Shown: in pieces, positions 6,743-57,258 of the stretch
How the letters are laid out: each line of letters opens with the position of its first letter
How positions within the stretch are numbered: position 1 is the first letter of the stretch
DNA from: an uncultured Candidatus Binatia bacterium
Lineage (GTDB): Bacteria; Desulfobacterota; Binatia; UBA9968; JAJDTQ01
Direction: 5' to 3'
Length of the DNA stretch: 64,000 bases
Assembly (NCBI GenBank): GCA_965242525.1
Contig: OZ251459.1
Location: 1,888,001 to 1,952,000, forward strand
Made by a program: the position numbers and the translations under genes
Notes under the pieces: model-generated
The model's input: the letters and a program-made list of their open reading frames with translations, nothing else
Told to the model about the DNA's origin: nothing
Database searches by the model: none

Positions 6743-7273
6743 TCATTCTTCCGTCCCCTTCTCTTGAACGGGGGAAGGTTCGTCGGACGGCGCTTCCGAC
6801 GGCGCCTCTGCCTCGGCGGCCGGCTCCCCGCCTTCCGGCGCTACCTTGACCTTGACGGTTGGCGTGACTTCCGGGCCGAGGCGGACGGGGACGTCGTATT
6901 CGCCTACGGTCTTGATGGGGGCGTCCAGGACGATCTTTCGGCGATCGACTTCGAAGCCTTGCGCCTTCAGGGCCTTTTCGATGTCGAGGTTGGTGACGGA
7001 GCCGAAGAGCCTGCCTTCCTCGCCGACCTTGGCGGCGAACTCCAGGGAGACCTGCGCCAGCTTCTCGCCGAAGCTGCGGGCTTCCCTGGTCAGGCGCTCC
7101 CGCCGTTGGGCGATCATGCGCTGCTCGTGCTCCAGGGCCTTCAGGTTCTTCTTGTCGGCAAGGACCACCAGGCCTCGGGGCAGGAGGTAGTTCCGGGCGT
7201 AACCGTCCTTGACCCGCACCACGTCGCCCATGCTGCCCAGGTTCTCAATGTCTTCTCTCAACACGACTTCCAT
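6743..7273 (-). CDS. rplI: 50S ribosomal protein L9
   Basis: MEVVLREDIENLG..GDVVRVKDGYARNYLLP, GRLFGSVT. Confidence 0.97.
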   Translation of the reverse strand: MEVVLREDIENLGSMGDVVRVKDGYARNYLLPRGLVVLADKKNLKALEHEQRMIAQRRERLTREARSFGEKLAQVSLEFAAKVGEEGRLFGSVTNLDIEKALKAQGFEVDRRKIVLDAPIKTVGEYDVPVRLGPEVTPTVKVKVAPEGGEPAAEAEAPSEAPSDEPSPVQEKGTEE

Positions 7274-50584: not shown

Positions 50585-50977
50585 CTATGCAACCCCTTCC
50601 CTGGACGCCGCACTCGCCAGTTTCCTGTCGAGACCCACGAACCTTGCCCGCCGGCGTTTCGCCGTCTCCACGTAGGCTGCGTCGTAGGCGGTCAGGCCGT
50701 GACGCCTTGCCAGTACCGGTATCTCCCTGTCATCCTGGCGGTCGTCGGTGACGAACCGAAGGTTGCGGAGTCGGCCGAGGTGTGCTTCCGCCGCCTCTGC
50801 CTCGATCCGCTTCCTTCGTTCGGCAACGACCAGGACGTTGCGCATCTCGTGCCAGAAGATCCCGGGCACGACGGCCGTTTCGGTCCGCATTCGCTCGATC
50901 ATCCTGTCCGCAATGGCGATGCCTTCCGGCTCCCTCAGACACCAAGCCGCCGCCAACGAAGCATCCACCACGATCAT
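50585..50977 (-). CDS. vapC: VapC-type PIN-domain toxin
   Basis: VVDAS, VP..FWHE..N, LTAYDAAY, LDRKL; all four acidic PIN positions present. Confidence 0.92.
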   Translation of the reverse strand: MIVVDASLAAAWCLREPEGIAIADRMIERMRTETAVVPGIFWHEMRNVLVVAERRKRIEAEAAEAHLGRLRNLRFVTDDRQDDREIPVLARRHGLTAYDAAYVETAKRRRARFVGLDRKLASAASREGVA

Positions 50978-53826
50978 CGGGCTCGACCCTCGTCACGGGC
51001 CTGGCGGACTTCCTCGCTCGTCATGACGGTCCCGCGTCGGTCGCGTTCCCCAAGCATGGCGTTTCCGATGATCTCGACCACGAGATACCGGAAGGTGGGG
51101 CAGTCGGAACGAAACTCTGCCTGGTTTACACGTATGTAATGCCAGGGATTGCCCGTCGCGCCGCTCACCCGGCGGCACCATTCCTGCATGGCCGCGTCCT
51201 TCTCACTGGTGCCCTCCCACTCGCGGCCCTTGGTCTCGATGATCCAGTTCACTTCTTGGCCTTCCGTGTCGCGCTGGACGGCCACCCAGTCCGGGTAGTA
51301 GAACCCGACGGCGCCGCTCGGCTTCAGGTAATCGACGCGGAACGACGTGCCGGAAGCCCCCTGTTCCGTGGTGCCCAGCGCGGCGAAGCGCAGGACGTCG
51401 CCGGCGTTGTCCAGGAACTCCGCAAAGCGGCGCTCGAAATCGTTGTAGGTGGCCACGAAGTTGAAGACCGTCTTCCTCGCTTCCAGAGGCGGAAGGTTCC
51501 GCCGCCAGCCAAAGGGGTTCGTCTCGGACAGGTGGAAGTCCTGTCTGGCGAATTCGATCTCGCTGCGCTCGACGGTGAGCTCGGCGATCTTGCGGACAAG
51601 GTACTTGGCGATGCCTTCTCGTACCTCCAGTCGCGCCAGATGGGAGCGGAGGATGTCGTCATCCAGTTCGACCTCCCGGCCGAAACACCGATTCCCGATG
51701 TACTCCCGGGTCACCGGGTACAGCTCCGCAAAGCGATTGGTCAAACCCGCCTTGGCAGCCACCCGGTTGGTCACATCGGCCAGAAACTCCTGGACGGGAA
51801 GCAGGCCGCCGGAGATGTCGGCCTGGTGCACTTCGGTTTCGGTCGTGGCGAATTCCAGCTTCAACCTGATACGGAACCGCTCGTCGAGCTCTGCCTGGTC
51901 GAAGATCGGTTCGAGGGACTGCACGTCCAGTTCCGACAGTTTGCGATGGTCGTGCTTCAGGCTCGGCTTGGTGATGGGAATGGCGATGTCGTATTCCAGC
52001 CGTTCCTGCACCGGCCGGATGCTGACCGGCGGCGGCGGATCGGTCTCCGTGCTCGCTACACCTACGCCTTCGGCCTCCAGTTGTTCGCGCAGGACGTTGA
52101 GCAGGTTGCGCGTGCCGAGCACTTCCAGGGTCTGCGTCCGATCCGGGCTCACCTGCGTCATCAGGCGCAACCCGCGACCGACCACCTGCTCCGGGAGGAT
52201 TTCGGCCTTCGCGGTGAACGGCCGCAGCCCCAGCACCACCGTCACGTTGCGCACGTCCCACCCCTCGCGCAGCATCATCACGCTGACGATGGCCTTGACC
52301 CTGCTATCGGCCCGGTCGATGTCCCGCGCCGCCATACGGGCCTTCTTGAGTTCTTTCTCGTTCTTGATTTCCCCACTGTTGTTGGTGTGGATGACCAGCA
52401 CCTCGGACTGCTTGAAACCGAACTCCCCGGTCTTCCACAGATACTCGCCCAATGCGTCAGCGTAGTCGATCTTTTCCGCCATGATGAAGAGCACCGGCCT
52501 GATGCCCAGCTTACCGTACACCTTCCGATGCTCCTTCCAGCGTCGGACCGCGGCCTGTAGCCAGTAGCCGTACTTCTCCGCCACGTTGTCCCTGGTAATC
52601 CCGTCGGGATCTTCGGTTGGCTGATTCCTGTCGGCCTCCCTGGTGACGATGAGAGGCGCCTTGACGATCCGATCCTCAACGGCCTGCGCCAGCGGGTAGT
52701 CCACGACCGTCCAGGGAAAATACATGCGGTTCTGGTCCTGCGGCGTAGCCGAGAAGTCGAGCCAGGCGCCGAGGCCGCGCGGCAACGCTTCGTGGATGGC
52801 GAGAAGAGACCTGCTCCAGGCCAGGTCTTCACCGTGGACGTGGTGTGCTTCGTCGTTCAGCACCACGAGGTCCTTGAGCGACTTCACCCGTTCCAGCATG
52901 GAGCGTTGGCCGGATGACGCCAGGTTTTGCGCGTCCTTCCTGCCCAGAAGCGCTTCGACGGGGTTTTTCGGCGTCCACTCCTTCTCTCCTTCGTAGATCT
53001 GCTGGACATTGGTCAGAAAAAGGTTTCCCGATGGATCCGGTTCGGCCGCCTCTCCGGGGAGGATCACCTTTTGTGAGAATCCGGTCCGCCATTCCGGCGG
53101 AATGAGCGGAAGCTGATGGAATATCCGGTTGTTCGCGAAGTCCTTCTCCAATCGTTGATAGACGATGACGTTGGGCGCCACGATGAGGAAATTCGTCGAA
53201 AGCTCCGATCCCGGGACATGCTGTTTGTGAAGCCGCGACCAGACGACCGCCATTGCCATCACCCAGGTCTTGCCCGAACCGGTGGCCATCCTGAAGGCGA
53301 ACCGACGCAAGTTCTCGGGCGGCAGGTCCTGTACGCCGTCCGCTTCCAGCTCCGGCACGTAGCGGCGAAGCTGGCGCCTTCCGTCCATGGTCGTCTGGAA
53401 CTCGATATTCTTCGAGAGCAGGTCTTTCGGAAAGATCGTGGCCCGGGCTTCGATGAGCTCCTTGGCGTCTCGATGGCCGGAGATTTCCACAAGCCAGATC
53501 AGCGTCTCGATCGCTTCGCGCTGGCAAAAGTAATACCGGAAGGGTACGTCGAAACCGGCAACTTCATGATCCTCCTCGAACCAGTAATCCAGCAAGCGCC
53601 GAGTGACATCGGAAGCGCCTCGATAACCGCCATCGCGCCATGCGTCCACCGCATCGCGCACCTTCGGTACCAGCAACAAACGGCTCGGCCGGCGGCCGGA
53701 GTCGTCCTCGCGCCAGCCGGTCGGTGCGTCGGCATCCTTGACCAGGTGGGAAACGGGCCTCTCCCACGGACGGCGGCCCCGAATCTCCGGCAGATCCTTG
53801 TCATAGTCGATGACAGCCCTTGCCAT
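50974..53826 (-). CDS. res: Type III restriction enzyme Res subunit with VapB-like C-terminal tail
   Basis: MATGSGKT, NDEAHH, FSATP, LREGWD, EQVVGRGLR, YYPDW...IIETKG; ends MTSEEVRQARDEGRAR. Confidence 0.9.
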   Translation of the reverse strand: MARAVIDYDKDLPEIRGRRPWERPVSHLVKDADAPTGWREDDSGRRPSRLLLVPKVRDAVDAWRDGGYRGASDVTRRLLDYWFEEDHEVAGFDVPFRYYFCQREAIETLIWLVEISGHRDAKELIEARATIFPKDLLSKNIEFQTTMDGRRQLRRYVPELEADGVQDLPPENLRRFAFRMATGSGKTWVMAMAVVWSRLHKQHVPGSELSTNFLIVAPNVIVYQRLEKDFANNRIFHQLPLIPPEWRTGFSQKVILPGEAAEPDPSGNLFLTNVQQIYEGEKEWTPKNPVEALLGRKDAQNLASSGQRSMLERVKSLKDLVVLNDEAHHVHGEDLAWSRSLLAIHEALPRGLGAWLDFSATPQDQNRMYFPWTVVDYPLAQAVEDRIVKAPLIVTREADRNQPTEDPDGITRDNVAEKYGYWLQAAVRRWKEHRKVYGKLGIRPVLFIMAEKIDYADALGEYLWKTGEFGFKQSEVLVIHTNNSGEIKNEKELKKARMAARDIDRADSRVKAIVSVMMLREGWDVRNVTVVLGLRPFTAKAEILPEQVVGRGLRLMTQVSPDRTQTLEVLGTRNLLNVLREQLEAEGVGVASTETDPPPPVSIRPVQERLEYDIAIPITKPSLKHDHRKLSELDVQSLEPIFDQAELDERFRIRLKLEFATTETEVHQADISGGLLPVQEFLADVTNRVAAKAGLTNRFAELYPVTREYIGNRCFGREVELDDDILRSHLARLEVREGIAKYLVRKIAELTVERSEIEFARQDFHLSETNPFGWRRNLPPLEARKTVFNFVATYNDFERRFAEFLDNAGDVLRFAALGTTEQGASGTSFRVDYLKPSGAVGFYYPDWVAVQRDTEGQEVNWIIETKGREWEGTSEKDAAMQEWCRRVSGATGNPWHYIRVNQAEFRSDCPTFRYLVVEIIGNAMLGERDRRGTVMTSEEVRQARDEGRAR

Positions 53827-53880
53827 GATTACCTTATCTCCCGTCGAAGACAAAGACCCGTTTGAAGCGTCAGCATTGTC

Positions 53881-55911
53881 CTACACCTTGACGTCGTATG
53901 CTTGGGACGTGTCGTTGCCGAAGATGTCGATGACCTTGACCAGCACTCGATACTTGCCCGGCTTCTCATAGGTGTGCGCGTCGGACGCGAGGGCCAAGCT
54001 CCGGTCCTTGCGGGTGCGGTAGGCCACCCATCCCTGCATGAAGGTGTCGTTCCGGAAGTCCCAATCCACTGCCCAGTAGTCGATGTAGTCCGACCACTTC
54101 GTGACCTTGCTCCGCACGTCGTCCGGGATGAGGTTAGCGTTGGGGATCACGAAGTCCTTGAGCGCCACCGACACGGTGAGTTTCTTCGGTTTCCTGATCG
54201 CGGCGTCCAAGTAGGCCAGCTCGAAGAAGCGAACGTCACCCTTGTCCGCGGCCTGCTGCTCCATCACTTCACGAGGGATCTGCAACAAAAGGAGCTTGAC
54301 GCCTTCGCGTTTTGCTTCCTGGACCACGAGATTCTGAAGGCCCATTTCCCATTCCCAGCCGAGAACGTGCAGTTCCTTCTGCTTCACTTTGAGACATTCT
54401 TCTACCGAAGACTCGATTTCGCCGATGGTCACCGGGGCGTCCACTGCGCCAACGTGAACCATCGCCCTGCCCTTCTTGCCGTGCAGATGGATCAGGCCGA
54501 CCACGGGTTGGGAGCCATGGAGTTTCAGAATAAAGGCAAGATATTCATAAAGCGCCTGCTCCGCGATCGGCTTATCCCTTTTGCCGAAAGTCACATCCTG
54601 CCAGTACTGACGCTCATACCTGCCAAGATTCAGAACATCGAACGGTTTGCAGTTCCCCATACCGAGCAACCGTTTGCGAGTAATATGAATACCCCATCGT
54701 CCAAGGTCACAACCGATCCAGCGTCTGCCAAGGTTTTCAGCTACAGCGAGCGTCGTGCCGGAACCGCAAAAGAAATCTGCAACAAGGTCATTTGGCCGGC
54801 TAAGCCATGCAATTATACGGGCCAACAATTGTTCATGTTTCTGGGTGGCGTAAGCTTTGCGGTTTTCGTAAGTCTTGACGTCATCCCATACGGTGTCGCC
54901 GATCTTGTCGTCACTGGGGGCAAACCAGTTTTCTACGGTCCCGGTCTGCGACTTCCGAATGAACTCGAGATCCTCACCCGTGTCTCGCCAATATTTCACC
55001 AATGAACGTCCGCCACCTTCTTCGCAAAATTGATTGTAATTCTCAACTGCACGTAATGCTCGTTTCTTTTCCCATTTCCACTGGCCGTGAGTAGGCGTTT
55101 CAGAAAGCAATTCATATCGCATACTTGGCCGATCGGCGCCGCTCCAGAAACGGTGCCAATAGCCTTCAGGTGAAGACGTTTCGTACGGAACCAGAAGATT
55201 GGGAACCCTCGTATCCGGCTGCATGGAGTACCAAATCAATACGTCGTGACCTTGCGGAAGAGCTGTGATTACCTTGAATTGTCGTTGCAGGTTTTTCGTT
55301 ATCGGTCTATGAATCACTATTTCATTCCTGAAGTTTTCAACGCCAAATATCTCATCCAATATCAATCGAAGATGAGGGGTCACATTGGGAGCGACATGAA
55401 CAACAAGGTGGCCTTCTTGAGATATGAGAGACCGGATCAATGTCAAGCGCTCCCTCATCGTCTGCATGTAGCTGATGAGCCCGCGGCCCCAGGTGTCGCG
55501 ATAGGCTTTCTCCTCTACTACCGACGCCTCCTTGTCGAGTCGAACGCTTCCGTCACCGATCTCGGTCGTAAACGAAAAATCTGCTCCTGTGGCAAACGGC
55601 GGATCGATATAGATCAGATCGACCTTCCCTGCGAATTTCTCCAACAGCGACCCCATCACCAACAGGTTGTCACCCCAGATCAGCTTGTTCTTCCAACCAT
55701 CCTCGAAGGTGTCGCCCTCGCTGCCCTCGTAGACGTCGAACAGCGACCCCTGCACGCCGCCCTTCTTCGCCTCGCGCATGGCTCGGCTCTCGTTGACGGT
55801 CTCGATGATCTGGAACGGCAGGTTGACCCGCGGAACTTCCTTGAGCGTTCCGTTTTCGTCGTATTTGCCGGGCCAGATCAGCTCGGTCTTCGTGACGTCG
55901 ATCTTCGCCAT
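53881..55911 (-). CDS. mod: Type III R-M Mod subunit (beta-class adenine methyltransferase)
   Basis: NKLIWGDN, IYIDPPF, AYRDTW, Y.TQK.E.LL, DFFCGSGTT; C-terminal IDYWAVDW..KVIDIFGND. Confidence 0.92.
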   Translation of the reverse strand: MAKIDVTKTELIWPGKYDENGTLKEVPRVNLPFQIIETVNESRAMREAKKGGVQGSLFDVYEGSEGDTFEDGWKNKLIWGDNLLVMGSLLEKFAGKVDLIYIDPPFATGADFSFTTEIGDGSVRLDKEASVVEEKAYRDTWGRGLISYMQTMRERLTLIRSLISQEGHLVVHVAPNVTPHLRLILDEIFGVENFRNEIVIHRPITKNLQRQFKVITALPQGHDVLIWYSMQPDTRVPNLLVPYETSSPEGYWHRFWSGADRPSMRYELLSETPTHGQWKWEKKRALRAVENYNQFCEEGGGRSLVKYWRDTGEDLEFIRKSQTGTVENWFAPSDDKIGDTVWDDVKTYENRKAYATQKHEQLLARIIAWLSRPNDLVADFFCGSGTTLAVAENLGRRWIGCDLGRWGIHITRKRLLGMGNCKPFDVLNLGRYERQYWQDVTFGKRDKPIAEQALYEYLAFILKLHGSQPVVGLIHLHGKKGRAMVHVGAVDAPVTIGEIESSVEECLKVKQKELHVLGWEWEMGLQNLVVQEAKREGVKLLLLQIPREVMEQQAADKGDVRFFELAYLDAAIRKPKKLTVSVALKDFVIPNANLIPDDVRSKVTKWSDYIDYWAVDWDFRNDTFMQGWVAYRTRKDRSLALASDAHTYEKPGKYRVLVKVIDIFGNDTSQAYDVKV

Positions 55912-56426
55912 TACCGGGCTTCTCCGATTCGCTTCAGGTACTCGCTCCCCGCGGGTGTCAGGCGGTATCGCTGCCTGCTGCTGCGCGGCTTGTCCGGGAT
56001 GGTCATTTCGATCAGGCCGGACCCAAGGGCGGGCGCCAGATAGACTTCGTTGAAGTGGTCGCGGTGTTTCAGGCCAAGGGCTTCCTGGAGGCTCTGCCTG
56101 GTCATTTCACCAGACATCGCCCTCAGCAGTCGCACTTCCCCGGTGACTTCCCCGGTAACTTCCCCGGTGACTTGCCCGGTGACTTGCCCGGTAACTTGGG
56201 GGGTCACCCGACCATCCCCCGATACCTCCCGGACTTCCGGGTTCGGACGGAAAATGACGGTGACGAAGCGGTTGGCCTCGAACATCGCCTCCGATTCGCC
56301 GATGACACATCGATCCCGGCACAGCGCCCCCAGGACGATGTTGTGGGTCTTGCCGGAACCGGACCCCGCGGCTACCGGCAACGGCCCATCCGGGTAGTGC
56401 TTCAGGATGGCGGGCGCGATGCTCAC
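55911..56426 (-). pseudogene. Chimeric relic: UvrD-like helicase N-terminus fused to a C-terminal winged-helix module
   Basis: ILKHYPDGPL.V.AGSGSGKT (UvrD motif I) joined to TGQV/TGEV repeats and LGLKHR..F...YL.PAL..GLIEMTIPDKPRS..QRY. Confidence 0.62.
56134..56193. repeat. 12-bp tandem repeat x5 (ACTTSCCCGGTR), coding TGQV/TGEV
   Basis: Read directly from sequence; in frame. Confidence 0.9.
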
Positions 56427-57106
56427 AACAGTCCTGCCTTCCTGAAGCTGAAGGTCTCTTCCGGCGACACCACCAGGTGATCGACGACCCGGAGGCTGAC
56501 GGTCTCGGCGGCCAGCACGATGGCCCGCGTGAGCACCTTGTCGTGCTCGCTGGGCTCGACGTTGCCGTTGGGATGGTTGTGCGCCAGCACGAGCGCCGCG
56601 GCTTGGCGCTTGAGCGCGGCTTCCACGATGCTGCGGGGATACACCGCTGCACGATCGACCGTGCCTTCCTGGAGCGTCTCGACGCCGTTGCGCAGCAGCC
56701 GGCACGCGGAGTCCAGGTACGCCACGGCGAACACCTCGTGCCTGAGGGCGCCGATCTGCATGCGCCAGAAGTCGCCGAGGCGCCCGGAGTCCCGCAGCAC
56801 CTCCGCTCCCTCCGACGTTTCCCGCAGGTAGAGCGCCGCGGATTCGCGGACCACGTGCAGGGCGACCGCGGCGGCCTCGCCGATGCCTTCCACCGACTGC
56901 AACTCGGACAGCGGCGCGTCCAGGACTCCCCGCAGGCTGCCGAAGCGCTTGAGCAGCGCCTTGGCGGGCTGCTTCACGTCCGAGCGGGGGATGGCCAGGG
57001 TCAGCAGCAGCTCGATGACCTCGTGCTCCGCGAACCCCGCCAAACCGCTGTCGAGGAAACGTCCGCGGAGACGTTTGCGGTGGCCGTGGTAGTGCGGCTG
57101 TTCCAT
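56423..57106 (-). CDS. radC: RadC/JAB domain protein
   Basis: GHRKRLR.RF, HhH GIGE, AHNHPNG...PS..D, DHLVV. Confidence 0.93.
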   Translation of the reverse strand: MEQPHYHGHRKRLRGRFLDSGLAGFAEHEVIELLLTLAIPRSDVKQPAKALLKRFGSLRGVLDAPLSELQSVEGIGEAAAVALHVVRESAALYLRETSEGAEVLRDSGRLGDFWRMQIGALRHEVFAVAYLDSACRLLRNGVETLQEGTVDRAAVYPRSIVEAALKRQAAALVLAHNHPNGNVEPSEHDKVLTRAIVLAAETVSLRVVDHLVVSPEETFSFRKAGLL

Positions 57107-57258
57107 CCTCGAGCCGTCCCGTGGTCGTGGACCGGGCCTTGATGTTCTCCCATCCGGGCCGGGACACGGACCGCATCCTGCGGGAGGTCCTGGGCTACGA
57201 CCCTGCGCGCATCGAGCGGCTCCGGGAGGGCGGCGTCCCGGAGTAAGGCAGGTCCGGG

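Follow-up and report, generated by a model that had tools for sequence, protein, structure and literature searches.

In an uncultured Candidatus Binatia bacterium, a type III restriction-modification (R-M) operon has probably absorbed a VapBC toxin-antitoxin pair. The operon lies in a stretch of 64,000 nucleotides (contig OZ251459.1, positions 1,888,001 to 1,952,000; hereafter the window) and consists of three minus-strand genes, which are transcribed in the order mod, res and vapC. The DNA-binding domain of the antitoxin is gone, its toxin-binding segment would survive as the last ~30 residues of the restriction subunit Res, and the VapC toxin would be held by this tail. What was observed directly is the gene anatomy, the homology of the tail, the way in which it co-occurs with vapC, and how related loci have decayed. 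In window coordinates, the operon has the following parts.

53881-55911, minus strand: mod, type III DNA methyltransferase of 676 residues (from the open reading frame list)
50974-53853, minus strand: res, type III restriction subunit with helicase, PD-ExK nuclease and an added C-terminal tail, 959 residues from a TTG start
51229-51294, minus strand: PD-(D/E)xK nuclease motif of Res (residues 854-875), invariant alignment columns
50977-51093, minus strand: Res tail (residues ~921-959), past the end of tail-less Res relatives and homologous to the C-termini of Phd/YefM antitoxins
50974-50977, minus strand: ATGA shared by the res stop codon and the vapC start codon, putative translational coupling
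50585-50977, minus strand: vapC, PIN-domain toxin of 130 residues (Pfam PIN)

An earlier note on this DNA had described the three genes as co-oriented, with the res stop and the vapC start overlapping and no separate vapB gene present. All of this was borne out. The three minus-strand open reading frames were found, and the ATGA is present at 50977-50974, where the vapC ATG (50977-50975) overlaps the res TGA (50976-50974) in the sequence itself. Overlaps of -3/-4 are likewise found between canonical antitoxins and the relatives of VapC. The sequence GAGGG stands 9 nucleotides 5' of the vapC ATG, within the D-E-G codons of the Res tail, and we infer that it serves as the ribosome-binding site of vapC. 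No small upstream gene appeared in the open reading frame list. Among minus-strand frames of at least 40 residues, the only other one ending near the vapC start was an off-frame 62-residue frame inside res (50993-51181). This Arg/Pro-rich frame was the sole candidate for a vapB hidden in another frame and was rejected. The database copy of Res (P0001) has 950 residues and starts 9 codons further in.

In Phd/YefM-type antitoxins, the N-terminal domain binds DNA and the C-terminal segment folds onto the toxin and neutralises it. The antitoxin-derived segment of Res comprises its last ~27-30 residues (...AMLGERDRRGTVMTSEEVRQARDEGRAR). Res scored 283 bits with the NCBIfam profile for the BPTD_3080 restriction endonuclease equivalog, against a cut-off of 800, and is thus a relative and not a member of this equivalog. 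The profile alignment stops at Res residue 911; therefore, the last ~40 residues are extra. Neither Pfam nor NCBIfam detected a Phd/YefM or other antitoxin domain in Res. The AlphaFold2 model of full-length Res had a mean predicted local distance difference test score of 54 and was used for the secondary structure of the tail only. In this model of low overall confidence, the tail forms helices at residues 921-940 and 946-955. The C-terminal 180 residues of Res gave no match in the plasmid collection, and a search of sequencing runs listed no RNA run that contains the locus.

The homology of the tail was seen in the neighbours of VapC relatives. Annotated VapC toxins on Rhizobiaceae plasmids are 45-47% identical to the window VapC, and upstream of them lie genes annotated for antitoxins of the prevent-host-death family with ~80 residues. 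One of these antitoxins carries a PhdYeFM domain and ends ...PVTQEEIRAWRDEGRA / ...AEIRAMRQMAKPVTQEEIRAWRDEGRA. The window tail matches the end of this antitoxin end-to-end with 10 of 15 residues identical (blastp, E value 3e-5). A metagenome sample provided 80 further loci of VapC relatives with 38-56% identity. At most of them, the upstream DNA contains an open frame of ~80-160 residues that ends ...EELLSARDEGRK or in a close variant, with its stop 3-4 nucleotides ahead of the inferred vapC start. Upstream DNA is missing at 5 of the 80 loci, and a few have other frames. The closest metagenome relative of VapC (L092, 56%) is preceded by a Res of 962 residues with the tail.

Profile comparison gave the same picture. 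When 11 Res tails were aligned with 29 antitoxin C-termini in hhalign, the match had a probability of 95.6% and an E value of 1.3e-8 over the last 20 columns, and the C-terminal register was kept. The stand-alone antitoxins matched are of the Phd/YefM type, have ~80-100 residues and precede VapC relatives. As a control, the Res-tail profile was run against the 67,213 six-frame open reading frames of this genome, where it matched only Res at E < 0.1. The profile, built from Res only, was too narrow for the tail of an Nmad2 protein described below, which was found from the PIN side. The earlier note had given a typical form for the antitoxin C-termini of this VapC subgroup, and the real upstream neighbours of the VapC relatives matched it. 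It had further proposed that the neutralising segment was grafted onto Res without the DNA-binding domain. The tail homology, the lack of a Phd/YefM match in Res and the strong co-occurrence of tail and vapC agree with this proposal, and judged by sequence comparison the graft of a VapB-type C-terminal segment is well supported.

The toxin itself appears intact. VapC matched Pfam PIN with an E value of 2.8e-11. In an alignment of 55 relatives, E44, D99 and D117 were invariant and D5 was kept in at least 90%, in line with the earlier statement that all catalytic acidic residues are retained. A search of solved structures gave weak matches only, to the stand-alone PIN proteins 2fe1 and 1v8o/1v8p, and no VapBC complex was among them. 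PADLOC found no family match for VapC and no PrrC-like match at the locus. Frameshift variants of vapC occur naturally (P0126, P0173 and P0179) and break partway through the gene; two of them are ~90-98% identical to the window gene and one is from a more distant lineage. Thus, as far as these sequences indicate, vapC is sometimes inactivated in the wild.

Next to this toxin stands an R-M system. Mod matched Pfam N6_N4_Mtase (E value 1.9e-31) and the PADLOC family MTase_III (7.6e-116), and its translation contains the motifs DPPF and FCGSGTT. Res matched Pfam ResIII (6.3e-15), RE_endonuc weakly, and PADLOC REase_III (2.5e-18). Walker A (MATGSGKTW), DEAH and PDW...ETK are invariant across 33 Res homologues, the latter comprising P854, D855, W856, E873, T874 and K875, so that the intact PD-(D/E)xK nuclease recognised earlier was upheld. 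The locus therefore has an N6/N4 Mod and, in a gene that lies behind mod in the same orientation, a Res with superfamily 2 helicase motifs and a C-terminal PD-(D/E)xK nuclease. By its genes mod-res is a type III system, from which ATP-dependent cleavage of unmethylated DNA with a requirement for Mod is only predicted.

We then asked how far the fusion extends among Res homologues. Residues 780-959 of Res as the query retrieved 1393 proteins at E <= 0.001, and the best 120 were inspected. All 120 carried the tail at their end and in frame; because the ranking from this query favours tail-bearers, the count is not an estimate of prevalence. A simple anchor pattern matched 118 of the 120, and the remaining two end ...GEGRA and ...VEGRP. 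With a tail-less-like relative as the query, the proteins listed mostly ended 18-37 residues past the conserved VNQ motif. The proportion of synonymous differences (pS, 0.11-0.78) exceeded that of non-synonymous differences (pN, 0.07-0.44) in the tail codons of 21 of 21 pairs. The codon comparison thus suggests that the tail is under purifying selection.

The genomic context was examined in the best 80 of 575 stretches that encode a Res relative in GTDB species genomes. The Res C-terminus is covered by 78, of which 66 have at least 420 nucleotides downstream; the 12 set aside were all without tail. The tail was present at 11 of the 78 loci. Directly after res, vapC was found by tblastn at 9 of the 11 tail-bearing loci, in contrast to 0 of the 55 others. 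Pfam confirmed the PIN domain at eight of these nine, and the ninth (L058) was added by tblastn. Tail and intact vapC occur together in Gammaproteobacteria, Alphaproteobacteria and Gemmatimonadota. The earlier note had left room for an accidental fusion seen in this genome alone, and for Res tails without a vapC neighbour. The first did not apply, given the best 120 of the 1393 homologues and the 11 GTDB loci. The second applied as an exception to two of the 11 loci: L068 is visibly decayed, and L006, from Acidobacteriota, keeps the tail behind an apparently intact res. No intact module was found in 27 other species of this genus.

The conservation of the tail also bears on the explanation that a separate mini-antitoxin is made from an internal start at M933 or M944, in which case the in-frame overlap with Res would be incidental and Res would not regulate VapC. 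M933 is indeed kept in at least 90% of the 33 homologues, and stand-alone tails of 50-51 residues (P0258 and P0259) suggest that a peptide of this size can be its own gene. Against it, the tail is in frame, with no stop or spacer, in the best 120 homologues and at 11 of 11 tail-bearing genome loci, and the fused form would be made anyway by ribosomes translating res. By eye, no obvious ribosome-binding site lies ahead of M933. The stand-alone Phd-type antitoxin P0122 has a Met in this region as well (...EIRAMRQM..., placed by eye and outside the alignments), which indicates that M933 need not be a start. We regard the mini-antitoxin as unlikely. It is not exclusive of a neutralising tail on Res, and both can hold.

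Further evidence came from loci in which the module has decayed. At L068, res is internally deleted, the tail is kept and 8 vapC codons are left. In one genome of the same genus (G306), the tail has gone, and the remaining pieces of res run into a vapC without its codons 1-11, and hence without D5. What remains of the tail in another (G310) is a short piece of its end, behind which vapC is split over three frame pieces. Both L039 and P0319 stop at the junction with the tail, and in L039 the end falls exactly at the point where a tail would start. L014, which adjoins the main tail clade, has no vapC, and its tail is degenerate (...REQVQWRAAGH...). Thus tails without vapC were seen, and no intact vapC without a tail was seen at the loci examined. 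From these sequences, such asymmetric decay appears to be the pattern expected of a toxin and its antidote.

This asymmetry is also informative about a different role of the tail, as a docking peptide by which VapC serves as an accessory nuclease of the restriction complex, for example against phage transcripts, without any toxin-antitoxin or addiction logic. Tail homology, coupling and co-occurrence would fit the same anatomy, and the TIR, SIR2, OLD-like ATPase and Schlafen genes that are among the effector-like genes found after many tail-less res genes suggest a slot for accessory effectors. But the closest stand-alone relatives of VapC are annotated as toxins with antitoxins of their own, and asymmetric decay is predicted by a toxin with its antidote, not by a harmless accessory. 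Docking is therefore rather unlikely in our estimate. Finally, the fusion could be an evolutionary relic, in which a deletion joined a vapB remnant to res and the product was carried neutrally, with vapC inactive or irrelevant. The frameshifted vapC genes (P0126, P0173 and P0179) and the decayed loci L068, G306 and G310 would agree with this. The relic is nevertheless strongly disfavoured, and we give it very little chance, since tail and intact vapC persist across three lineages (Gammaproteobacteria, Alphaproteobacteria and Gemmatimonadota), the catalytic residues of VapC are conserved, the tail is apparently under purifying selection, and a similar graft is found at least twice more.

A search with the tail profile among 1.84 billion representative proteins gave 19 matches at E <= 0.001, and 17 of these were inspected. 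Nine of the 17 were C-terminal fragments of Res. In seven others, the tail was fused to a RadC-like N-terminus (P0243 and P0247) or to a nucleotidyltransferase-like fragment (P0250), a Mod N-terminus was fused to the Res C-terminus or the tail (P0245 and P0249), or the tail stood alone with 50-51 residues (P0258 and P0259). The N-terminal identities of the chimeras were judged by eye against the translations of the window open reading frames. The P0245 chimera is represented by 10 members, each of 261 residues, on 10 contigs, and Res remnants of 91 residues with an intact tail exist as well. The tail thus appears to stay in frame in deletion chimeras that begin with a RadC or Mod N-terminus, which we count in favour of a tail that is kept as an antidote.

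Based on these observations, we propose that coupling at the ATGA would cause vapC to be translated in step with completed full-length Res. VapC would be kept inactive by the Res tail, and its predicted RNase activity would depend on Res being present and intact. The only antidote would be removed, and VapC freed, if res suffered a deletion, frameshift or nonsense mutation or if Res were degraded by proteolysis or sequestered. Mutations that truncate res would take the antidote with them, since the tail is the last part to be translated. The toxicity of VapC, its binding to the tail and the nature of this trigger are here predicted from homology and gene order. The best supported outcome would be that res is hard to lose, through addiction or an integrity lock: the decay patterns fit loss of the antidote upon truncation and point in this direction. 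It is also plausible that the wiring yields a second outcome, a PrrC-like backup by abortive infection that acts once Res is disabled by a phage. A phage-triggered guard like PrrC would be compatible with this wiring, and the comparative sequence data seem to fit dependence or addiction at least as well. A VapC dimer with two tails might even bridge two Res-Mod complexes. Structure predictions for VapC with Res 912-959 gave run scores of 0.16, 0.61 and 0.10 relative to a mark of 0.32 and do not weigh on binding either way.

Several points weigh against a neutralising tail on Res. The tail match is short, with 13-20 aligned residues holding most of the signal, and the motif is charged and helical. 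The unrelated protein P0260, one of the 17 inspected matches, scored with the tail profile at an E value of 9e-5. P0260 is a membrane-type protein of 283 residues with two copies of a ...EIRAWIAEGRAN... motif, a reminder that a short charged motif of this kind can recur outside antitoxins. The conservation of DEG could partly be due to the ribosome-binding site of vapC and not to protein function. L006 combines an apparently intact res and tail with the absence of vapC. The compared loci share descent, and 9 of 11 versus 0 of 55 overstates their independence. A tree of 60 rows, from which partial or frame-broken loci were left out, placed eight tail rows in one clade together with L039 and three more tail rows in an unresolved long-branch group; it is compatible with a single or a multiple origin of the main tail type and neither shows nor excludes either. 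The chimeras are known as proteins alone, outside their genomic context, and may or may not adjoin a vapC. Growth inhibition by VapC and neutralisation by direct binding of the tail are predicted from sequence. Furthermore, classical antitoxins are labile, whereas the proposed carrier here is a stable 959-residue Res, from which release of VapC would be less easily explained.

The same kind of graft has, by sequence, apparently arisen at least twice more. The Res relative at L031 (3501-6815, including the PIN gene behind it) has a different, longer tail (...SLKELLLAPNPRTDELAPP...EFE), which matches the C-terminus of another Phd/YefM antitoxin (VapB) of the window's genome with an E value of 6e-7. 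The FitB-like PIN protein after this res is 47% identical to the VapC of that antitoxin. This tail type is common to only three close clusters, and a relative with 89% identity ends exactly at the junction. Downstream of the L031 res, a second PIN homologue lies in convergent orientation (L031 ~6850-7245). The other case is an Nmad2 protein in the window's genome (G000:C1:3044987-3046167; L002 707-1911, including the VapC paralogue). This protein has 262 residues, with the Nmad2 domain at residues 9-208, and ends ...LSVRQMVEEGRRY immediately ahead of a VapC paralogue. Its tail matches the end of a canonical antitoxin with an E value of 1e-4, and the VapC of that antitoxin is 40% identical to the paralogue. 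With the Nmad2 protein, this genome thus has a second candidate for an antidote carried by an enzyme. Two other Nmad2 matches were found in 300 genomes of the phylum, both without a tail, and this graft may be unique to the present genome.

From the two tails on type III Res and the one on the Nmad2 protein, a broader and more tentative reading can be drawn, which we consider possible but doubtful. Antitoxin C-terminal peptides could be portable 'dead-man's handles' that have repeatedly been attached to the C-terminal ends of enzymes for defence or DNA modification, each with a cognate VapC. Since the peptide is translated last, only complete enzyme molecules would carry the antidote, and the toxin would therefore act as a sensor of whether the enzyme is complete and available.

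Restriction enzymes are costly and easily lost by mutation, and phages encode proteins that disable them. If the portable-handle reading holds, costly defence genes would become addictive, and a phage factor that degrades, clips or sequesters Res would provoke abortive infection. This would provide a simple mechanism for addictive defence genes and for the coupling of immunity to suicide, both long-discussed. The arrangement shows that an antitoxin may shrink to a short peptide that passes from one carrier protein to another, and it suggests a small candidate neutralising peptide. The annotation of toxin-antitoxin systems would also be affected, because 'orphan' VapC toxins would look partnerless. 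The module has just three genes and is widespread in environmental bacteria.

Compared with VapBC systems that have Phd/YefM-type antitoxins, the window locus shares the acidic quartet of the PIN toxin, the homology to the VapB C-terminus and a toxin start that overlaps the stop of the open reading frame for the presumed antidote. The clade-typical antitoxin segment ends at the toxin start, as expected. In VapBC systems, a separate upstream antitoxin gene with an N-terminal DNA-binding domain (Phd/YefM, ribbon-helix-helix or AbrB) autoregulates the operon; the canonical relatives have such a gene, and none is present here. There is no Phd/YefM DNA-binding domain and therefore no antitoxin-mediated autoregulation. 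The candidate neutralising segment is instead borne by a 959-residue restriction enzyme.

CapRel-type proteins are fused defence toxin-antitoxins. The fused mono-gene modules described in passages of PMC11980606 resemble the present case in that an antitoxin segment is covalently attached to another protein; there the antitoxin is joined to its own toxin, whereas here it is joined to an unrelated defence enzyme and the toxin is separate. The embedded or appended defence genes in the sections seen of Payne et al. (bioRxiv 10.1101/2024.01.29.577857) likewise attach a PIN/VapC-like effector to a larger defence operon, and differ in that the link here is an explicit VapB-derived peptide on Res. 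Passages of PMC12707154 name PrrC and PARIS as guardians of restriction systems. The PrrC/EcoprrI type IC system, an 'RM guardian' in the same passages, also places an RNA-cutting toxin in or beside an R-M operon and presumably keeps it latent through the restriction enzyme. The PrrC toxin, an ABC-ATPase/anticodon nuclease, is encoded in a type I hsd operon, in contrast to the 130-residue PIN protein with a type III system here; neither the ABC-ATPase nor the hsd operon was found at the locus. A grafted antitoxin peptide is not known for PrrC latency, and activation by a phage peptide, which is known for PrrC, applies here by analogy only.

Full-text searches, which did not cover supplements, found no account of a restriction enzyme that bears an antitoxin segment, and the passages of an R-M review, of papers on embedded defences and on fused toxin-antitoxins and of a 2009 type II census contained no such arrangement. 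Within these texts, VapBC pairs and toxins linked to restriction systems are already known, and the antitoxin segment on Res appears to be new.

The operon is part of an island between metabolic genes, together with two upstream features.

55911-56420, minus strand: Fic-like_C fragment (Pfam Fic-like_C, E value 1.6e-26)
56423-57115, minus strand: radC (Pfam RadC, E value 5.2e-34)

The G+C content is ~48-65% over 50.4-56.6 kb, versus ~67-73% in the flanks. At window positions 54400-55800, within the 5' half of mod, it falls to 48-53%, a value far lower than in the remainder of the island or in the genome; a separate origin is possible for the part of mod that encodes target recognition. Apart from a series of VTGQ/VTGE repeats, the 169-residue frame at 55911-56420 encodes just a Fic-like C-terminal domain; it ends at the mod start. 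It looks like a truncated gene.

Elsewhere in the same genome (L087 484-4188; G000:C1:1418983-1422687), a 1087-residue PLD-like and SNF2 helicase protein is followed 12 nucleotides further on by a PIN_3 protein, and its C-terminus has no obvious antitoxin-like tail. The slot after tail-less res (L004-L083) holds varied defence-type genes. These include TIR (L041 and L072), SIR2 (L056), HicAB (L046), Schlafen AlbA_2 (L063), RadC (L080), DruA-like (L028) and ABC-3C CTD9 (L066) genes, as well as an OLD-like AAA_15/TOPRIM gene (L038); L014 has ATPase domains only.

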